From Candidatus Lokiarchaeum ossiferum (GTDB lineage: Archaea; Asgardarchaeota; Lokiarchaeia; Sigyniarchaeales; Promethearchaeaceae): a stretch of 32,000 nucleotides of DNA. Positions 7,611-32,000 of this stretch are shown here, piece after piece; position 1 is the first letter of the stretch, and each line of letters begins with the position of its first letter. The DNA lies in contig CP104013.1 of assembly GCA_025839675.1 (NCBI GenBank), positions 960,001 to 992,000 of the forward strand, written 5' to 3'. The translations under genes were made by a program, and so were the position numbers. The notes beneath the pieces were generated by a model. That model ran no database searches. It saw only the letters and a program-made list of their open reading frames with translations, and had not been told where the DNA came from.

Positions 7611-8414
7611 ATGAAAAAAATTCTTATCTTATATGGGAGTCCAAAGGGAAAAGGAAATACTTCAAAGATAGCTCAACTGTTTATGCATGCTTTAGATATT
7701 CACAGAGAAAATGAATATGTAGAATTTTATTTGAAGGATATGAATATTGGATTATGCAAAGGTTGTATGGCATGTGTTACCAAAGGAATAGAAAAATGTC
7801 CATTAAATGATGATGTATCTATGATAATTACGGAAATCTTAAATTCTGATGGTGTCATACTTGCATCCCCGAATTTTACTGGAAATGTTCCATGGTTGGT
7901 AAAGAATTTCTTTGATCGGATGTGTTCCTTTGCCCATCGACCAATTTTCTTCAATCAACCACTTGCTATAGTTACAACTTGTGCTGGTATTGGATTGGCA
8001 GATTCCTTGAAAAATCATTCTGAACTACCTAAATATATTGGATTTCATCCTATTACTAAACTAGGTGTTAAAACCCCTCCTCATTTCTCATTTAAGAAAA
8101 TCAATCAAGCCATTCAAAAAAAAATTGAAAAATCAGCAAAATCTTTCCACCAATCTCTAATCTCAAAACAACCAAAATTCAATCTGGATTCTCTGATTTT
8201 TTATCAAATTTTTAAGAATATTATTCCTCTCCTTAGAAATTACTTCTCCAAAGATTTTAGCTACTGGAATGAACAAGGCTGGTTTTCCAAAGACAAAACG
8301 TTTTTTGTTTCATTCAAAGGAAAGAAATTACAAAAAATCCTCTCTCAATTTATTGGAAAAATGGCAGCAAGAAGTGTGGAAAAAGAACTGGTTCAAATAA
8401 AATCCAGTTCTTAG
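7611..8414 (+). CDS. Iron-sulfur flavoprotein (Isf)-like, NADPH-dependent FMN reductase / flavodoxin-fold protein
   Basis: The ORF is open from 7506, but the ATG at 7611 gives the canonical N-terminus MKKILILYGSPKGKGNTSKIA and is preceded by AGGGGAAG. The compact cysteine motif CKGCMACVTKGIEKC (C-x2-C-x2-C-x7-C) resembles the 4Fe-4S site of Methanosarcina Isf. The motif LASPNFTGNVP is typical of the fold. Confidence 0.85.
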   Translation: MKKILILYGSPKGKGNTSKIAQLFMHALDIHRENEYVEFYLKDMNIGLCKGCMACVTKGIEKCPLNDDVSMIITEILNSDGVILASPNFTGNVPWLVKNFFDRMCSFAHRPIFFNQPLAIVTTCAGIGLADSLKNHSELPKYIGFHPITKLGVKTPPHFSFKKINQAIQKKIEKSAKSFHQSLISKQPKFNLDSLIFYQIFKNIIPLLRNYFSKDFSYWNEQGWFSKDKTFFVSFKGKKLQKILSQFIGKMAARSVEKELVQIKSSS

Positions 8415-9199
8415 GTGGAAGGAATAAATGCATTTTTCCAAAAATAATTCCAAATTTTTTTAAGATAATCTATCCCAGATTTATCGGTCACATAGAAAGT
8501 CGTACCAAAGTCCGGTTTTTGATCAGAAATGGATGGAAACGACAGAAATCCTTCTCCTAAATCAGAAAATGCTACCGATATGGGGATTTTTTCCATAAAT
8601 TTCACGCATAAGAGTGGTGGTTGAGGGAGTATTTTGGAATATTTCTCCTTTTCAGGTTGCAAATTCTGGGGTATTATTAGATCCACTTTTTTTTTTGATA
8701 TATCTCCAGGAAATGGACTATCTGACATTATTGAGAATTTTTTTCCATTAATTAGGAAATCTGTCATTTTATGCACAAAATAACCCGTTCCATCAATAAT
8801 TTCCGCGTTTTTTAATTGAAAAATGTCTCGCGTTAAATTAAATGGTAAATCAGAGATTCTATGGGATGTGAAATAATTTGAATTTACAAAGAGAAAATTC
8901 ATTGGAGCAAAATTTTGAAGAATCAACATTCCATAATGTGCTAAATTATACTTGCGGGAGATAGGATCTCTCTCAACCAATTCCACATCAACCAAACGTT
9001 TTAAATGTCTTGATATCTCCGAATTTGAAATATTTCCTAGTTTAGCTGTTATTTCGGAGGATGAATATTCACAATCCTCAAGTAATAATAGAATTTGAAC
9101 ACGAATTGGATTCGCGAACACATTAAGTAAATCTTTGTATCCCATATAGTAATAACGTATTTTTGGCAGTTTAATTAATTTACACATATGTGAATACAT
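8411..9199 (-). CDS. ArsR-type winged-helix transcription regulator with a DUF1724-like C-terminal domain
   Basis: The HTH segment is LLNVFANPIRVQILLLLEDCEYSSSEITAKLGNISNSEISRHLKRLVDVELVERD, followed by a roughly 170-aa C-terminal domain, the architecture common in archaeal DUF1724 regulators. The ATG at 9197-9199 directly abuts the TAA (9200-9202) of the upstream gene. Alternative starts are at 9187 and 9145. The stop overlaps the convergent flavoprotein stop by 4 nt. Confidence 0.85.
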   Translation of the reverse strand: MYSHMCKLIKLPKIRYYYMGYKDLLNVFANPIRVQILLLLEDCEYSSSEITAKLGNISNSEISRHLKRLVDVELVERDPISRKYNLAHYGMLILQNFAPMNFLFVNSNYFTSHRISDLPFNLTRDIFQLKNAEIIDGTGYFVHKMTDFLINGKKFSIMSDSPFPGDISKKKVDLIIPQNLQPEKEKYSKILPQPPLLCVKFMEKIPISVAFSDLGEGFLSFPSISDQKPDFGTTFYVTDKSGIDYLKKIWNYFWKNAFIPST

Positions 9200-9991
9200 T
9201 TAATTCCGTGTAAAATTCCACTGATTTAGCTGCTGTTTCAATTCTAACATTTTATCCTTTCCTTCTTGGAGCTGGCTTTTGAGAGTTTCTAATCGAATTT
9301 TTTCATTATTTATCATACTCTTTGTAGCTTTTTCGAGGAAAGAGGGATCCATCATTTTTTCAAGATGAAGTATTTTTTGCATCAATTTTTCATCCTTTGC
9401 CTTCAATATTCCTAGTTGACGCTCTAAATCAACAATTTCAGGATCTAAATAATCCCAGTTATTATCTCTTTGTTCCATTAGTGATTCCAATTGAGAGAAA
9501 GAAATCATTTGGAAGTGATTAGCATCCACTGACACATTGAATCGCTTTCCCTTGATTTCAGTATTTGTGTTGGAATGATGATGTCCATAAAGTTGCCAAG
9601 AGTTATGATGAGAATGAATAAATGAATGCATCGGATAATGACATAAAGTAATAGTTTTATCTAAAATTCGAATTTCTTTCAGAATTGAGACACTTGTGCA
9701 ATATTTTTTATAATAGGATACCATGTGCTTATCATGGTTTCCTATAATGAAATGAAAATCTACAAGTTCGGTGAGTTGTTTTAGGATGGCAAGAATCTCC
9801 ACGTGTTTTGATTTAGAAGCAAAACTAAAATCTCCGAGGAAATATACAACGTCTCCTTTGTTCACTGTAGAAAAAAACATTTTCAAAATGGAATTATTCA
9901 TATCTTGAACATTACTGAAGGGACGTTCGGAATATTTGATAATATTTGAATGAAATAAGTACCAATCTGATGTGAAATATATATTTTGCAA
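9200..9991 (-). CDS. Calcineurin-like metallophosphoesterase (COG4186-like) with a C-terminal coiled-coil extension
   Basis: Metallophosphoesterase motifs occur in order: FTSDWYLFH (motif I, atypical), YFLGDF (GD), IIGNHDKH (GNHD), CHYPMH, YGHHH (GHxH). The last roughly 90 aa are heptad-like and K/E/L/Q-rich (LERQLGILKAKDEKLMQKILHLEKMM ... LKSQLQEGKDKMLELKQQL). Confidence 0.85.
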   Translation of the reverse strand: MQNIYFTSDWYLFHSNIIKYSERPFSNVQDMNNSILKMFFSTVNKGDVVYFLGDFSFASKSKHVEILAILKQLTELVDFHFIIGNHDKHMVSYYKKYCTSVSILKEIRILDKTITLCHYPMHSFIHSHHNSWQLYGHHHSNTNTEIKGKRFNVSVDANHFQMISFSQLESLMEQRDNNWDYLDPEIVDLERQLGILKAKDEKLMQKILHLEKMMDPSFLEKATKSMINNEKIRLETLKSQLQEGKDKMLELKQQLNQWNFTRN

Positions 9992-24529: not shown

Positions 24530-26746
24530 TCAATTGGAAGTTTGAAAACTTACTTGTTGACACATTAGGCTTATCTTCTCAGTATATTTGGCAAATTCTT
24601 CTCTTCCATATTCAGAGATGTCAACAAATTGGAGAAATCGATCTTGATATTCTTCATCTTTAATAATCCACCCCTTTTTCTGTAGCACTGAAAGATGATA
24701 GTCTAAATTTCCTGATGTTAACTGCACTTTATTTTTCAAATCGGTCCAATTCATCCGTCCATAATCATACAAACAATAAAGAATATTGAAACGGTGTGGA
24801 GCAGTAATTAAATCATTTTTCTCTAAAATTTCTTGACTAAATTCTTTTTGTTTAATCAAGTTATCAGAATCCTTCACAATTTCGATTACTTTTTTAATAC
24901 TAAAGGGTAAACCTTTCGATTTTAACAGTTCTTGTAAAAGGACAATATCTTGCGAAAATCTCTGTAAATTTTGCTGCGCTTCATACGTATTTCCTTCCAA
25001 AACATAATAAATCGTCTCAGTACCTAGCCGGTTCATAATTACAGTATTGTTGTCAAATTTTATTCGGTCTACAGAGTTGGACTCGAATTTTTCCCGAATT
25101 GAATGAATATCTAAATTAATTTCCTTCGCATCATCAATAGTCGAATAGAATTTTAGATTTGAATCGTCATTATCTGACACAATTTCTAACAATTTTGAAG
25201 TTTCAATCGAGTTTTCAAAAGAATCAATTTCTTTGGTCTTCAAGGTTAATTGTAAAATATCATCAATTGATGCAAATTTAAGACGATCGGAGATCTCAGA
25301 TTGATGATTTTGAAAATCGGTCCATTTATCATAGTATTGTAAAAATTTATCATATTCATGGGATATTTTACGTTCTAATCGGACTAAATCATATTTACGT
25401 GCAATTCGCTGACCCATTATAAAGTTTTTTTGCGCTCGGTCAAAATTAAATGTAATTAAGTCAAATTTAGCTTGCAATAATTTAATTTCAGCTTTCAATT
25501 CTTGCGAATTACATGAATTGGCGATGCTTTCTAATTTTTCGAGCAATATTTTGATCTCATCTAAAATATATTCTTCGTTTGATTTAGCCAATTCTTCAAA
25601 TAATAACTCACAATATTTTAGATGAAGAGGAGGATCATTTTGAAGGTCTTCGATCTTCATTAGATTGCGGAGAATATCGCCAGCTCTCACGATATTCCGT
25701 GAACCGCCTTTACTTTTTAAAAATAAAGCATGGGCAAAATCATATATTAGTTTAACTCGGCGATTATCATCCGTTTTTGCAATCTGTTCTAGCTCTTTAA
25801 AATACATTTCTGCTGCTTCGTAATCTTTTTGGAGAGTAAAATTTTCGACAATCTTGAAATAAGCACCTGCAATATTGAGATTATTCCCCAATTTTTTGAC
25901 AAGCTTATAACCATGTTGAAAATAATCCATGGATTTCGGAAGATTCCCTTTTTGCATATAAATCTCCCCAATCGCATTAGAGAAGGCTCCCAATAAATAT
26001 TCATTCTTGATTTCTTTAAGGATATCAAGACTTTGCTGGTAGTAATCTAAAGCAATATCTAATTCACCTAGGGTAGAATAAATTTTGCCTGTATTTCCCA
26101 AACAATAGGCTAACTGGTTAAAATTTTTTGTTAATTTTGAATGTTCGATCGATTTTTTGTAGTATCGAATTGATTTCAGTAATTCTCCTTTCAAATAATA
26201 AGCAACACCCAAATTATGATAAACTTCTCCCAATTCATATTTCAAGCCATACTTTTCACAAATTTCCAACCGCTTTTGATTACTCTCTAAGAGTTTATCT
26301 TTATGTAAGTGTTGATAATGATATAAGGATGACAAATAGTAGAAGTGATTATATAATAAGTCTCTCTCTTGCTGTGTACTTTCTATATCGCTCAAAATAA
26401 CTTTCTTAATTTGTTGAATAGATTCAAAACATTCATCATTTTTCCCAAGACGAAATTCTGCAGTTCCTTTTGCTGTGAGTGATTCAACAAGCATTAATGT
26501 ACTGTTTCCCTTTATAGCTAAGGTAAGAGCTTTTTCCGCTAAATCTAAGGCTTCAAGGTATTGATTCAACTTGTTAAGGGCCTTACTTTTTAAAATAAAA
26601 AACTCACATTGATCAACTGGGGATAATTGATCGAGTTCTTGAATTTTTTCAAGTTTAGTCAAAACAGCTTCATGTCGCTGTTCCATGGAACATTGCCGGG
26701 CTGCTTTAAGAAGCTGATTTTCGTTGTTTTTTTCGCCAAAATTCAT
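24530..26746 (-). CDS. Large TPR-repeat protein with a C-terminal winged-helix DNA-binding domain
   Basis: 738 aa. The N-terminal roughly 330 aa carry TPR_12-like repeats (YHNLGVAYYLKGELLKSIRYYKKSIE, LGNTGKIYSTLGELDIALDYYQQSLDI, IGEIYMQKGNLPKSMDYFQHGYKL). The C-terminus is PHRFNILYCLYDYGRMNWTDLKNKVQLTSGNLDYHLSVLQKKGWIIKDEE, a wHTH of the MarR/PadR-like type. Confidence 0.9.
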   Translation of the reverse strand: MNFGEKNNENQLLKAARQCSMEQRHEAVLTKLEKIQELDQLSPVDQCEFFILKSKALNKLNQYLEALDLAEKALTLAIKGNSTLMLVESLTAKGTAEFRLGKNDECFESIQQIKKVILSDIESTQQERDLLYNHFYYLSSLYHYQHLHKDKLLESNQKRLEICEKYGLKYELGEVYHNLGVAYYLKGELLKSIRYYKKSIEHSKLTKNFNQLAYCLGNTGKIYSTLGELDIALDYYQQSLDILKEIKNEYLLGAFSNAIGEIYMQKGNLPKSMDYFQHGYKLVKKLGNNLNIAGAYFKIVENFTLQKDYEAAEMYFKELEQIAKTDDNRRVKLIYDFAHALFLKSKGGSRNIVRAGDILRNLMKIEDLQNDPPLHLKYCELLFEELAKSNEEYILDEIKILLEKLESIANSCNSQELKAEIKLLQAKFDLITFNFDRAQKNFIMGQRIARKYDLVRLERKISHEYDKFLQYYDKWTDFQNHQSEISDRLKFASIDDILQLTLKTKEIDSFENSIETSKLLEIVSDNDDSNLKFYSTIDDAKEINLDIHSIREKFESNSVDRIKFDNNTVIMNRLGTETIYYVLEGNTYEAQQNLQRFSQDIVLLQELLKSKGLPFSIKKVIEIVKDSDNLIKQKEFSQEILEKNDLITAPHRFNILYCLYDYGRMNWTDLKNKVQLTSGNLDYHLSVLQKKGWIIKDEEYQDRFLQFVDISEYGREEFAKYTEKISLMCQQVSFQTSN

Positions 26747-29618: not shown

Positions 29619-30407
29619 ATGCAAATGGGATCCGTACCTTTTTCCATCATAATTGCAAAATTTGATGATATCAAAGGTCCAATTTGCCTATTTGCACAAA
29701 AAAAAAATTTCTGTAATTTCCTTGGTAAACCATGCGATGAGATAACTAATAATTGGATTATGGATTCGTTTCAAATAAAAAAAGATATCTTCATTTTCGA
29801 TGATACAGAATATTTTATCCAAGGAATTTCAATACATTCGGAAAATAAAGAAGTTAGAGGATTTAAAGATAGATACGCTATTCTAATTCGATCTGAAAAA
29901 AAATTGGGAATTTTAAAAAAAAAAATTATTAACTTAATAAAAAATGACTTTTTGAAGCTAATAGATACAAAAAAAATTGACAAGTTAAATTTATTTGTTG
30001 GTTTTGCAAATAAATGGACAGAAAAATTACAAAATATGGGAAGTATTACAGATATATTAGAAAAAGATGAAGAATTAAGAAAAGCTAAACATGAATTGAA
30101 AGAAACGAAGCAAATTTTTAAGCAAGCAAGTGAAAAATTTATTATCCAATACTTCGGAGGTCTCTTATCGAAAATGTTAGATAAAGAGGTAAAATCATCC
30201 CAAGGATTAATATATTTATGCCTTAAAGAAGCATTTAACAACAATAACAAGATAAAATTAGATTTCGCAAGCCTTAAGGAGATCTTTTTTAATAATTTGG
30301 ATGAAAAATTAATTTCATTAAATTTCACTAACCATGATTTAATTATTAATTCGCTTATTGATGAATTAAGACAACATCAATCATTATTGATGATGATGAA
30401 CATATAG
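29619..30407 (+). CDS. Hypothetical protein: N-terminal longin/roadblock-like alpha-beta domain plus a K/E-rich coiled coil
   Basis: 262-aa ORF with an ATG start. Predicted by eye, the first roughly 115 aa give strand FSIIIAKF, strand PICLFA, helix EITNNWIMDSF, strands DIFIFDDTEYFIQGISI and RYAILIRSE, then helix LGILKKKIINLIKNDFLKLI. A coiled-coil-like segment follows (DILEKDEELRKAKHELKETKQIFKQASEKF). The antisense ORF 29771..30328 is F/S/L-rich, which is an artefact of A-rich codons. Confidence 0.8.
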   Translation: MQMGSVPFSIIIAKFDDIKGPICLFAQKKNFCNFLGKPCDEITNNWIMDSFQIKKDIFIFDDTEYFIQGISIHSENKEVRGFKDRYAILIRSEKKLGILKKKIINLIKNDFLKLIDTKKIDKLNLFVGFANKWTEKLQNMGSITDILEKDEELRKAKHELKETKQIFKQASEKFIIQYFGGLLSKMLDKEVKSSQGLIYLCLKEAFNNNNKIKLDFASLKEIFFNNLDEKLISLNFTNHDLIINSLIDELRQHQSLLMMMNI

Positions 30408-30421
30408 AGTGTGAGAAACTA

Positions 30422-31171
30422 TTGACAGATATATTAACTATAGTAGTAATGGGGGCAATTTTCTTAGCAATATTAAGTGCTTTCAGTTTAGGACTTTTTA
30501 TGACAATAAAAGCACTTCAAACTGAATACTATGATATAATTTATTATGGAATTGGTATTTTCTGTATGGGTTTACTCTATATATTTGAATTAAGTGGTTT
30601 GAGATTTTTTCAAGAAACTGTAAAAGTCATTGGATTGTTCTTCTTCTTAATATTTTGCAAGAAAAGCTTTTATAATGAAAAATCACCAACTGTTTTCACT
30701 CTCCTATATATATATCATTTCATCCTTCTTTTTATTAATCCAATTTTGAGTTTAAACTATGATAGATTTGCCATTATAATTAATCTCTTTTTTGGTTCCA
30801 GTTTAATGTTTATTTTTTTATTAATCTCTATTGGAGCATGGGTCGACTATAAGAAAATAAAAGTACTAAATGTTGAACCTTTTCTTAAGATAAGATATTT
30901 ATTAGTCAGTATGGCGAGTTTTCTATTTATAATAACTGGTAGTTCAATTATAATTGGGCACATTTTCCGTAAATATGGTAGTGATAACATTTATAATGTG
31001 ACAGAATTGATAACTATTTTTTCAGCACTTTTGGCTTCTATAGTTTTTTATTTAGCATTTGTAGGACCGAAGAAATTTAGAAAAATCTTTAATCGAACAT
31101 ATAAATCAATAGATATAGATTACAATGGCTTTATCGAGCAGGAAATAATAGGAGATTTATTAGATAAATAG
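30422..31171 (+). CDS. Six- to seven-TM integral membrane protein, function unknown
   Basis: 249-aa ORF starting at TTG 30422, 14 nt after the preceding stop; ATG 30449 is an alternative. Hydrophobic helices run throughout, with basic loops (DYKKIKV, PKKFRKIF). The architecture and C-terminal motif resemble the 5031..5840 protein. Confidence 0.75.
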   Translation: MTDILTIVVMGAIFLAILSAFSLGLFMTIKALQTEYYDIIYYGIGIFCMGLLYIFELSGLRFFQETVKVIGLFFFLIFCKKSFYNEKSPTVFTLLYIYHFILLFINPILSLNYDRFAIIINLFFGSSLMFIFLLISIGAWVDYKKIKVLNVEPFLKIRYLLVSMASFLFIITGSSIIIGHIFRKYGSDNIYNVTELITIFSALLASIVFYLAFVGPKKFRKIFNRTYKSIDIDYNGFIEQEIIGDLLDK

Positions 31172-31185
31172 AAAAATCAATTCCA

Positions 31186-32000
31186 TTAATATAATGGAGG
31201 GTTTTTTTGCAGTATTAGATTTTTTTGAAAAATGGTGAAAATGCTTGTTTTAAAAATTGAAATGCCTTGGTCAATTGGGACTAAATCCAATACTTTATTT
31301 AATATTTGTTGATTTAAAAAGTCGTTTGAGTATTTCTCTTTATCCAACCCAGGATCATATTTATGCAAGAACAAATTCAATTCAATTTTTAATTTATCTA
31401 CGTGAATATTTTTTAATATAATTTCAAAATAAGATAGAGATTCTTCATAGCGATCAGTATCTTGAATATCTAATACATAGATTATTTTGTCTATGTTTTC
31501 TAGGACTTCATCAGGTTTATTTGTGAATAAATCGCGATAAACAACTTGTCCTCCAAATTCATGGTATATTACCTCAGGTCTATATTTGAATTCCATATTA
31601 AGATCATAAAGGATAGAAGACATATGCTGTTTTCCTTCAGTGGGTTTTAAATTCTGATTAATAAATGCAAGTAGATTTTTTTTACCTAAAAAAGAAAGCA
31701 AAATTGAAGTTTTCCCACTTTTATCTAATCCCATTAGAAGAATGTTTTCTTGGTTTTTAGTTTTTTTTGAAAAAAGAGACTCTTGAGTGGAAATAAACGA
31801 TTCTAAATTTTCAAAAAGGGAATAAATTTGTTTATTCCTTACCATTATATATTTCCGCGTTCCAGATTTTTTAGAACTAATAATTCCTGCATTTTTTAGG
31901 ATTTTTATTTGTTTAAAGGTAGTAGATCGACTACGCCCTATTTTTTGCTCAAGTTCTCCAATAGTTAGTGTACCCTTCTGAAGAACCGATAAAATTTCGA
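31186..32000 (-). CDS. Winged-helix domain fused to a Rag/Gtr-like (Arf-clan) small GTPase; the N-terminus lies beyond the window
   Basis: G1 is ILLMGLDKSGKTSI, G3 is EFGGQ, G4 is LFLHKYD (HKxD as in RagA HKMD), and the G5-like motif is FKTSIF (compare RagA FRTSIWDE). IIYVLDIQDTDRYEESLSYFE parallels RagA [20 protein letters not shown]. My hand translation of the minus strand over 31846-32000 found no stop and gave EILSVLQKGTLTIGELEQKIGRSRSTTFKQIKILKNAGIISSKKSGTRKYI, directly in frame with MVRNK. That segment is an ArsR/MarR-like wHTH. Confidence 0.85.
   Translation of the reverse strand, partial: EILSVLQKGTLTIGELEQKIGRSRSTTFKQIKILKNAGIISSKKSGTRKYIMVRNKQIYSLFENLESFISTQESLFSKKTKNQENILLMGLDKSGKTSILLSFLGKKNLLAFINQNLKPTEGKQHMSSILYDLNMEFKYRPEVIYHEFGGQVVYRDLFTNKPDEVLENIDKIIYVLDIQDTDRYEESLSYFEIILKNIHVDKLKIELNLFLHKYDPGLDKEKYSNDFLNQQILNKVLDLVPIDQGISIFKTSIFTIFQKNLILQKNPPLY

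Follow-up and report, generated by a model that had tools for sequence, protein, structure and literature searches.

A Rag-like small GTPase joined to an ArsR-type winged-helix domain in a Lokiarchaeum protein, and its two-gene counterparts in Asgard archaea

We have analysed a stretch of 32,000 nucleotides from the genome of Candidatus Lokiarchaeum ossiferum (contig CP104013.1, positions 960,001 to 992,000; this whole stretch is called the window below, and coordinates are counted from its first nucleotide). At its end lies NEF87_000796, a gene whose product is, with near certainty, one polypeptide that joins an ArsR-type domain to a Rag-like small GTPase. The protein is annotated as hypothetical in the public record and carries the automatic UniRef name 'HTH arsR-type domain-containing protein'. 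It is the fused member of a conserved module of arsR and a Rag-like GTPase in Asgard archaea, which is new here. On balance we think it probable, if by no great measure, that NEF87_000796 is a transcription factor that is switched by the GTP/GDP state of its G domain.

The open reading frame (ORF) listed for this gene, 31186-31845 on the minus strand, starts at the ATG at 31843-31845, and the earlier note had claimed that the frame stays open upstream of this Met as far as the end of the window. This is indeed the case. The frame is open up to 31998 and comprises 270 sense codons, followed by the stop codon at 31188-31186, with 31999-32000 forming a partial codon. The part upstream of the listed start (31846-31998, minus strand) holds 51 codons without a stop, for which the stop frequency of 0.083 per codon expected from local composition gives a chance probability of about 0.012; the remaining two minus-strand frames have 4 and 5 stops across 31846-32000. 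The 270-residue fragment is 100% identical to the deposited 290-residue protein of Candidatus Lokiarchaeum ossiferum, NEF87_000796 (P0001 in our set; encoded on a contig of 6.03 Mb), and we have taken the true start from this protein, not from DNA past position 32000. The window contains the 3′ 93% of the gene (31186-32000, minus strand), namely codons 21-290 and the stop; residues 1-20 (MNNNQQLLELIKIIGDETRF) fall beyond its end, and nothing else is missing. The ATG at 31845, the first start codon within the window, encodes Met72, which lies inside the second strand of the wing and is not conserved, position 72 being Q, K, S or N in 15 full-length homologues. Because the deposited protein continues only 20 residues past the window and Met72 is internal, the apparent truncation of the ORF at 31845 is a window-edge effect.

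The N-terminal segment had been read as a winged helix-turn-helix, and profile, sequence and model all bear this out. In the full protein, the Pfam family HTH_5 matches residues 16-62 with 34.8 bits (cut-off 22), and in a sequence search of the Protein Data Bank (PDB), residues 5-86 match SmtB (1r22) with an E-value of 1e-9, as well as other ArsR-family proteins. An AlphaFold2 model of NEF87_000796, built on 68 sequences and with a mean predicted local distance difference test (pLDDT) of 79, has helices at residues 3-14, 17-26, 33-40 and 44-56, strands at 60-65 and 68-73, and a further helix at 77-96; as modelled, this is a complete ArsR/SmtB fold in the order α1-α2-α3-αR-β-β-α5. The window covers residues 21-96 of this domain (31771-31998, minus strand), from the end of α1 through the two-strand wing to α5. 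Residues 44-56, RSTTFKQIKILKN (31891-31929, minus strand), make up the recognition helix according to the alignment of fused homologues and the modelled secondary structure, and few positions in the family are conserved as well as those of this region, where S45 and K52 are invariant and K42, S43, T46, T47, S48, Q49 and L51 nearly so.

ArsR/SmtB proteins sense their inducers by metal ligands at α3N (CxC) or α5 (Asp/His/Glu), or by a reactive cysteine. Since residues 1-96 of NEF87_000796, as read from the sequence, contain no cysteine and no histidine, none of the known metal or thiol sites of this family is possible. The domain thus shares with repressors such as SmtB, CzrA, HlyU and BigR the α1-α5 winged-helix order and the HTH_5 match, but it has no α3N or α5 metal ligands, and a GTPase is attached past α5, where ordinary members end. 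The connection is made by a flexible linker of about 10 residues (at about residues 97-103; 31750-31770, minus strand), which is in frame and of similar length across all fused homologues; a wider stretch between the ArsR and Ras-like domains, residues 85-101, is of low confidence in the model, with pLDDT below 50.

The small GTPase domain spans residues 104-290 (31189-31749, minus strand), and its motifs G1 to G5 are all intact. The P-loop, GLDKSGKTS (G1, residues 110-118; 31705-31731), is invariant among the fused homologues, and the switch I threonine T140 (G2; 31639-31641) is invariant in 68 sequences. G3 reads EFGGQ (residues 167-171; 31546-31560), with Glu in the usual Asp position and the catalytic Gln kept, and both E167 and Q171 are invariant in 16 fused homologues; the ExxGQ form had been singled out before, but it is also found in some unfused relatives. 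G4 is HKYD (residues 232-235; 31354-31365), the H, K and D of which are invariant in 68 sequences, and it aligns with HKMD of Gtr1 (4arz) and RagA (6ces) as well as with HKFD/HKID of LokiRagO/LokiRagM. G5 is KTSIF (residues 270-274; 31237-31251); T271 and I273 are conserved, and the match to the Pfam family Gtr1_RagA reaches residue 274. The motifs that the earlier note had quoted, i.e., the recognition helix, the wing, HKYD and KTSIF, are thus all present. Rag/Gtr GTPases act as dimers via C-terminal roadblock domains, and those of eukaryotes are obligate heterodimers whose paralogous subunits are in opposite nucleotide states. As had been claimed, such a domain is absent from NEF87_000796, both by the end of the sequence and in a Pfam scan of the full protein: the chain ends 16 residues past G5, and the Gtr1_RagA match covers the 232 positions of its profile only as far as position 161.

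The affinity of the G domain had been put down as Rag rather than Arf. In the Pfam scan of the full protein, Gtr1_RagA scores 61.7 bits (cut-off 22; residues 106-274) and Arf 39.9, which passes its own cut-off. The closest PDB entry both by sequence (E 6e-16) and by fold (E 1e-10) is the Lokiarchaeota RagA-like GTPase 8yl2, with 8zla also among the best matches, and the ArfR structure 8oum ranked under 8yl2 in the fold search. When the G domain alone was compared with the PDB, the Lokiarchaeota proteins were followed by Gtr1 (25.9 bits), RagA (25.5) and Arf3 (22.6), so that by pairwise score eukaryotic Rag is favoured over eukaryotic Arf by a narrow margin. The unfused GTPases tie on the two Pfam models (Arf 74.5, Gtr1_RagA 74.2), and Tran et al. 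have likewise remarked that the Rag-like class of Asgard GTPases is structurally close to Arf (PMC10933270). Asgard small GTPases have been sorted by phylogeny into ArfL, RasL, RagGtr, MglA and ArfR (Vargova et al., preprint, 10.1101/2024.02.28.582541). We compared the G domain by phmmer with labelled references from a part of Table S3 of that study, which comprised RagGtr, ArfL and RasL sequences and no ArfR sequences. All five RagGtr references were matched, with 121.7 (NVM28500.1), 88.9, 65.8, 46.9 and 34.8 bits, while no ArfL or RasL reference in this part of the table was. Membership of the Asgard RagGtr group is thereby supported at the sequence level, and the Rag affinity holds at the level of this group; as for placing the domain in a tree, RagGtr is the nearest group by phmmer, but the neighbour-joining tree did not resolve the finer branching. 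With the Asgard RagGtr proteins (LokiRagO, 8yl2; LokiRagM, 8zla/9m28) and eukaryotic RagA-D and Gtr1-Gtr2, the domain shares the Gtr1_RagA match, the HKxD form of G4, a TSI-type G5 and the GGQxxYR and VIDxQD motifs, whereas it differs from them in lacking the roadblock domain, in its N-terminal ArsR domain, in the ExxGQ form of G3 and in a longer stretch between switch I and G3.

NEF87_000796 does not stand alone. We have found 16 distinct full-length fused proteins of 283-309 residues and 35-45% identity in independent assemblies (NCBI, ENA, JGI, Logan). All 16 match both HTH_5 and Gtr1_RagA and carry the two domains in one ORF, in agreement with the earlier claim of a single gene, and one of them, NEF87_002160, is a second fused paralogue in L. 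ossiferum itself, a cultured organism with a closed genome. E167, Q171, T140, H145 and the HKxD motif are invariant in the 16 proteins, and the segment between switch I and G3 is longer in the fused clade than in the unfused relative P0018. Two 'ArsR' proteins of 155-158 residues (P0017 and P0038) are of the fused type and break off just past the P-loop, probably because the gene calls are frameshifted or truncated.

A search for distant forms among 1.84 billion representative proteins uncovered further fused families below 50% identity. In three of these proteins (P0078, P0082 and P0086), two ArsR domains precede one G domain, an arrangement whose domain order fits an ArsR pseudo-dimer that would bind DNA. 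A further protein, P0154 (565 residues), has the same type of G domain fused to PAS and histidine-kinase ATPase domains. As for the origin of the fusion, neighbour-joining trees recover a single fused clade with bootstrap support (G half, 23/100; ArsR half, 42/100) that is too weak to decide between one and several fusions. In the same trees, no unfused relative is closer to the ArsR half than the ArsR protein of the two-gene locus L023, whose GTPase is the second-closest unfused relative of the G half. The likeliest origin of NEF87_000796 is that an arsR gene was joined to the GTPase gene immediately downstream of it.

The two halves are indeed encoded side by side in many relatives. We scanned loci with one genome per species and analysed the best 80 of 202 relatives. 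About half of these loci (41) matched the whole protein by tblastn and so looked like fusions; by their ORFs, all but L001, which is truly fused, have the two parts as adjacent genes that differ in frame. Of the 80 loci, 55 have an arsR gene upstream of a GTPase gene of about 182 codons on the same strand, at a median distance of about 31 bp and mostly with gaps of 2-50 bp. The unfused ArsR proteins are typically 111 residues long, match HTH_5 with 52.7 bits, have a canonical SQSTISQHL helix and, in 53 of 55 cases, contain no cysteine; their partner GTPases have DxxGQ in 52 and HKxD in 53 of the 55. Next after the pair comes a sensor kinase of the MASE3-PAS-HisKA-HATPase type in 39 loci, and after the kinase, in 37 loci, a receiver-domain (REC) protein with an uncharacterised C-terminal domain of about 170 residues and a WDDKFGP-like start. 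A divergent gene of the Lrp/AsnC type lies upstream of the pair in 44 loci, and kinase, REC protein and Lrp/AsnC-type gene are all present in 35. No roadblock or MglB-type gene was found within the conserved arsR-GTPase operon in the neighbourhoods of the analysed loci, which carry the labels Promethearchaeota, Helarchaeota, Hermodarchaeota and Thorarchaeota. Going by gene order, Lokiarchaeia and the Asgard lineages related to them commonly have the module as two separate genes. The architecture of NEF87_000796 is therefore unusual, as the earlier note had it, but not unique, for it belongs to a family whose commonest form is two adjacent genes.

Several further observations were made on these loci. 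The whole cluster of Lrp/AsnC-type gene, arsR, RagGtr GTPase, MASE3-PAS kinase and REC protein is exemplified by L007 (7299-12113) among loci L002-L080. Some relatives are stand-alone GTPase genes without an arsR neighbour (L018, L020, L021, L050, L055, L062, L082 and others), and in 13 of 23 such cases a protein of about 140 residues without a Pfam match adjoins; they often stand behind a membrane protein of about 770 residues, and L082 is adjoined by a protein with a weak match to Fuz_longin_1. The contigs of L003, L014, L021, L028 and L064 are labelled as bacterial metagenome-assembled genomes (Nanopelagicaceae, Deferrimicrobium) despite their Asgard-type loci, labels that are probably due to mis-binning.

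The fused genes have neighbours of their own. In L001 (Promethearchaeum sp.) and L081 (the NEF87_002160 locus), the fused gene is followed by a gene for a multi-pass membrane protein of 281 residues and then by one for a protein of 423-424 residues, in which two PAS domains accompany an N-terminal domain that has no name. Two genes on the plus strand are convergent with the fused gene of the window: NEF87_000794 (29619-30407; 262 residues), whose product tentatively has a longin-like N-domain and a helical C-terminal half, and, between it and the fused gene, NEF87_000795 (30422-31171; 249 residues), for which a hydropathy scan predicts about six to seven transmembrane helices. The N-terminal approximately 170 residues of NEF87_000794 (the domain itself has about 130) are homologous to the N-domain of the L001 PAS protein (E 4e-20). 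Because the same N-domain and a membrane protein accompany both fused paralogous loci, the linkage appears to have survived duplication and rearrangement. No sequence similarity was detected between NEF87_000795 and the membrane proteins beside the fused paralogues when the sequences were compared, and the membrane-protein link of the fused genes is consequently a weak one, which consists in similar size and type and in gene order.

The longin-like assignment of NEF87_000794 is a tentative one from modelling. In an AlphaFold2 model built on four sequences, the topology is ββ-α-βββ-αα, which is the longin order, and Foldseek matched the model to GATOR1 chains of about 362-370 residues, the Lokiarchaeota longin domain 8yqg, FLCN-FNIP and SEAC (E 2e-3 to 3e-2). 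The family of this protein is very small, with 4 proteins among 5.8 billion; its N-domain has a conserved FDDxxGPICL motif and three conserved cysteines, and one member, P0226, has an N-terminal membrane anchor. Since longin-domain proteins are the GTPase-activating proteins (GAPs) of eukaryotic Rag GTPases (PMC10933270), NEF87_000794 is, by analogy, a candidate regulator (GAP or guanine-nucleotide exchange factor, GEF) or partner of the G domain. A possible homology between this longin-like N-domain, the C-terminal domain of the REC proteins and the approximately 140-residue neighbour of the stand-alone GTPases was considered and rejected, as a pairwise E-value of 0.04 was unconfirmed by hmmsearch (E 9) and by hhalign (probability of at most 2%).

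Conserved elements also lie in front of the genes of the module. Upstream of the unfused arsR genes, CGATAT-type hexamers are found in about 30-33 of 55 regions as compared to about 2 in control regions, although many of the 55 loci are related, such that these counts are not independent. The elements usually form two to four repeats with 8-bp spacing, directly beside a TATA-like box that lies some 100-130 bp ahead of the ATG. In L007, for instance, NNCGATAT repeats spaced by 8 bp lie next to the TATA-like box at about 7860-7890 in front of the operon-type arsR, and about 30 other loci have equivalents. The fused genes of L081 (7884-7925) and L001 (560-600) share a TATA-adjacent promoter block of about 40 bp with a single G/C difference, ATATATTTAAATGTTT[G/C]GATATTTGGACATTCAAA. 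From their sequence and position, these conserved blocks are candidate operators, as would be expected for autoregulated genes of the ArsR type.

Taken together, the ArsR fold without a ligand site, the G domain with its catalytic motifs, the fusion or adjacency of the two, the variants with two ArsR domains and the linked sensors are our reasons for seeing in NEF87_000796 a regulator that is probably, on a modest balance of likelihood, switched by GTP. Under this proposal, the ArsR domain would dimerise and bind an operator, and the nucleotide state of the G domain (GTP or GDP) would serve as the input in place of the metal or ligand that ordinary ArsR proteins sense, and would alter DNA binding. 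In the unfused systems, this state might be set by the MASE3-PAS histidine kinase together with the response regulator and its uncharacterised output domain, and in the fused systems by the longin-like protein, which in the paralogue bears PAS domains, together with the membrane protein. The RagGtr-type G domain of NEF87_000796 would have lost the roadblock dimerisation domain, or would never have had it. We infer DNA binding, GTP binding and hydrolysis, the coupling of the domains and the roles of the neighbouring genes in this scheme.

A number of points weigh against this proposal. The recognition helix of NEF87_000796 differs at four positions from the family consensus KSHSTTSQQLK, and the NCBIfam model for ArsR/SmtB proteins (HTH_metalloreg) stays below its cut-off, with 35.7 as compared to 55 bits for the 270-residue fragment that lacks the first 20 residues. 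The relative placement of the two domains is not confident in the AlphaFold2 model, where the predicted template modelling score is 0.61 and the linker has pLDDT below 50. Furthermore, the model behind the longin assignment has a mean pLDDT of 65, and all its fold matches are above E 1e-3. In some distant fused clades, G3 no longer has its catalytic Gln (EAGGK, EAGGD and EGGGS in P0079, P0081 and P0083), which suggests members that are unable to hydrolyse GTP; as far as the sequences tell, a hydrolysing switch is therefore not universal among ArsR-GTPase fusions. With respect to the promoters, the candidate operator in the operon loci could equally belong to the divergent Lrp/AsnC regulator, and the motif CGATATNNCGATAT is not enriched in the window, with 7 matches as compared to 3.4 expected. 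The promoter of NEF87_000796 itself lies beyond the window end, and the conserved blocks are known from relatives.

Several of these points would suit other explanations. The G domain might be a passive sensor of the cellular GTP/GDP level, i.e., of energy or starvation, in the manner of CodY and without a dedicated GAP or GEF. The layout of the protein, with a sensor domain and a helix-turn-helix in one chain, resembles that of one-component systems, the loss of the catalytic Gln in distant fused clades suits sensing by binding only, and the conserved arsR-GTPase operon is free of roadblock and MglB-type genes. However, the clade of NEF87_000796 keeps Gln171, Thr140 and every G motif without variation, and the steady linkage to a kinase and response regulator, or to a longin-like PAS protein, suggests external control, so that we consider passive sensing rather unlikely.

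A second explanation, which strikes us as improbable, is that the winged helix does not bind DNA at all but is only a dimerisation scaffold that stands in for the roadblock domain, with the protein acting in membrane or cytoskeletal signalling like other Asgard GTPases. The roadblock domain by which Rag/Gtr proteins dimerise is absent here and the ArsR dimerisation helices α1 and α5 are both present; the gene has a membrane protein and a longin-like protein as linked neighbours, and the divergence of the recognition helix in NEF87_000796 would also be accounted for. Against this, few positions in the family are conserved as well as those of the recognition helix, and the unfused partners have the canonical SQSTISQHL helix and the high HTH_5 score. 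Moreover, the proteins with two ArsR domains are hard to square with dimerisation of the G domain, and the usual context is an operon with a kinase and a response regulator, a divergent Lrp/AsnC-type gene and conserved promoter elements.

We regard it as very improbable that the G domain is of the Arf type and that the protein is an Arf-like membrane switch with an odd N-terminus. The Pfam Arf model does score above its cut-off, many of the fold matches of the G domain are to Arl1, Arl2 and Arf6, and some unfused relatives carry the NCBI name 'ADP-ribosylation factor-like'. In the fused family, however, Gtr1_RagA outscores Arf, and the best matches in both sequence and fold are Lokiarchaeota Rag-like proteins. 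Features that would mark an Arf protein are not seen, as the N-terminus is an ArsR domain and not an amphipathic helix and G4 is HKYD and not NKxD. The nearest labelled sequences are RagGtr, with none of the ArfL references in the part of the table used being matched, and published trees keep RagGtr apart from ArfR and Arf (10.1101/2024.02.28.582541). Finally, that the fusion is a frameshift or assembly artefact which merged arsR with the GTPase gene downstream, as a single indel could do where the two parts are separate (55 loci, mostly 2-50 bp apart), is so improbable as to be negligible, given 16 distinct fused sequences from independent sources, two paralogues in the closed L. ossiferum genome, a linker that is in frame and of similar length throughout, features that are the fused clade's own (ExxGQ and a switch I-G3 segment longer than that of P0018), and more fused families at below 50% identity.

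The proposed GTP-switched regulator can be compared with several known systems. CodY of Firmicutes is alike in concept, as a winged-helix protein that responds to guanine nucleotides, and the HTH_CodY model gives 17.7 bits, a weak similarity of the helix-turn-helix; it is an analogue in concept only. CodY senses GTP by a GAF domain, not by a P-loop GTPase, and without hydrolysis. Csa3/CasR, too, is an analogue in concept only: it combines a domain that senses a nucleotide-type ligand with a winged helix in one chain, and the winged helix of P0001 matches the Csa3 models of PADLOC with E 1.5e-10, but the CARF sensor is N-terminal there, which reverses the order, there is no GTPase, and NEF87_000796 has no CRISPR context. 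An identity as a defence system was rejected, because the PADLOC models matched the generic winged helix only.

Closest in logic are the actinobacterial conservons (CvnA-D, MfpB-E) and the Group 3 MglA systems, in which a small Ras-superfamily GTPase is likewise encoded with a sensor histidine kinase (PMC4316618; PMC13343842). Links of prokaryotic small GTPases with kinases and with a predicted winged-helix protein are thus on record, and for Group 3 MglA, a neighbour protein with a predicted REC-like domain and a winged helix led to the suggestion of transcription control (PMC4316618). The conservon core consists of the CvnA kinase, the CvnB roadblock protein, CvnC and an MglA-type GTPase, whereas the Asgard operon consists of arsR, the RagGtr GTPase, the MASE3-PAS kinase and the REC protein; the roadblock/MglB GAP core of the former is absent from the latter, and the transcription factor of the former is not ArsR. 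No fusion of a GTPase with a helix-turn-helix is reported in the conservon and MglA papers (PMC4316618; PMC13343842).

For Rag-like proteins of Asgard archaea, Tran et al. list domain fusions only to longin and roadblock domains (PMC10933270). In the literature that we searched, we found no Asgard or archaeal small GTPase described as fused to, or partnered with, an ArsR or helix-turn-helix protein, nothing relevant turned up on 8yl2, 8zla, LokiRagO or LokiRagM, and the part of the Vargova supplementary table examined contains no fused sequence. Besides the module itself, the linkage of the fused genes to genes for a multi-pass membrane protein and for a protein that is tentatively longin-like, as it appears from gene order and sequence, is also new here.

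Elsewhere in the window, a second ArsR-domain protein of 262 residues is encoded at 8411-9199 (minus strand); HTH_5 matches its residues 30-76 with 38.5 bits, and its C-terminal approximately 180 residues have no Pfam match. A gene for a calcineurin-like phosphoesterase (9200-9991, minus strand) lies directly upstream of it. The region 23385-26746 (minus strand) holds a gene for a 738-residue protein that has MalT-like TPR repeats and, at its C-terminus, a winged helix (HTH_34/MarR); a gene for a 314-residue leucine-rich-repeat protein comes next on the same strand.

Asgard small GTPases, whose real functions have yet to be established (PMC10933270), are usually seen as forerunners of the eukaryotic switches of membrane trafficking. 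The present findings tie a sizeable Rag-like branch of them to a transcription factor of bacterial style: in Lokiarchaeum the two are fused, and in 55 or more further species-level genomes their genes lie side by side, mostly as part of a two-component signalling operon. The idea of a GTP-switched regulator can be tested cheaply, as NEF87_000796 is a small, soluble protein from a cultured organism and the question is whether its binding to DNA responds to GTP or GDP. If the idea is true, this would be the first function for an Asgard Rag-like GTPase and a case of a small GTPase that acts directly on transcription, and it would bear on the origin of Rag signalling. A wider proposal, which we offer tentatively and consider rather doubtful, is that a Ras-superfamily GTPase directly controls a DNA-binding domain, in the same chain or as an operon partner, under the regulation of a longin protein of the GATOR1/FLCN type and fed by membrane sensors, and that Rag-type GTPases began as signal-to-transcription switches. 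Were this so, the eukaryotic nutrient pathway of Rag, longin GAP and transcription factor would have had a prokaryotic-style forerunner.

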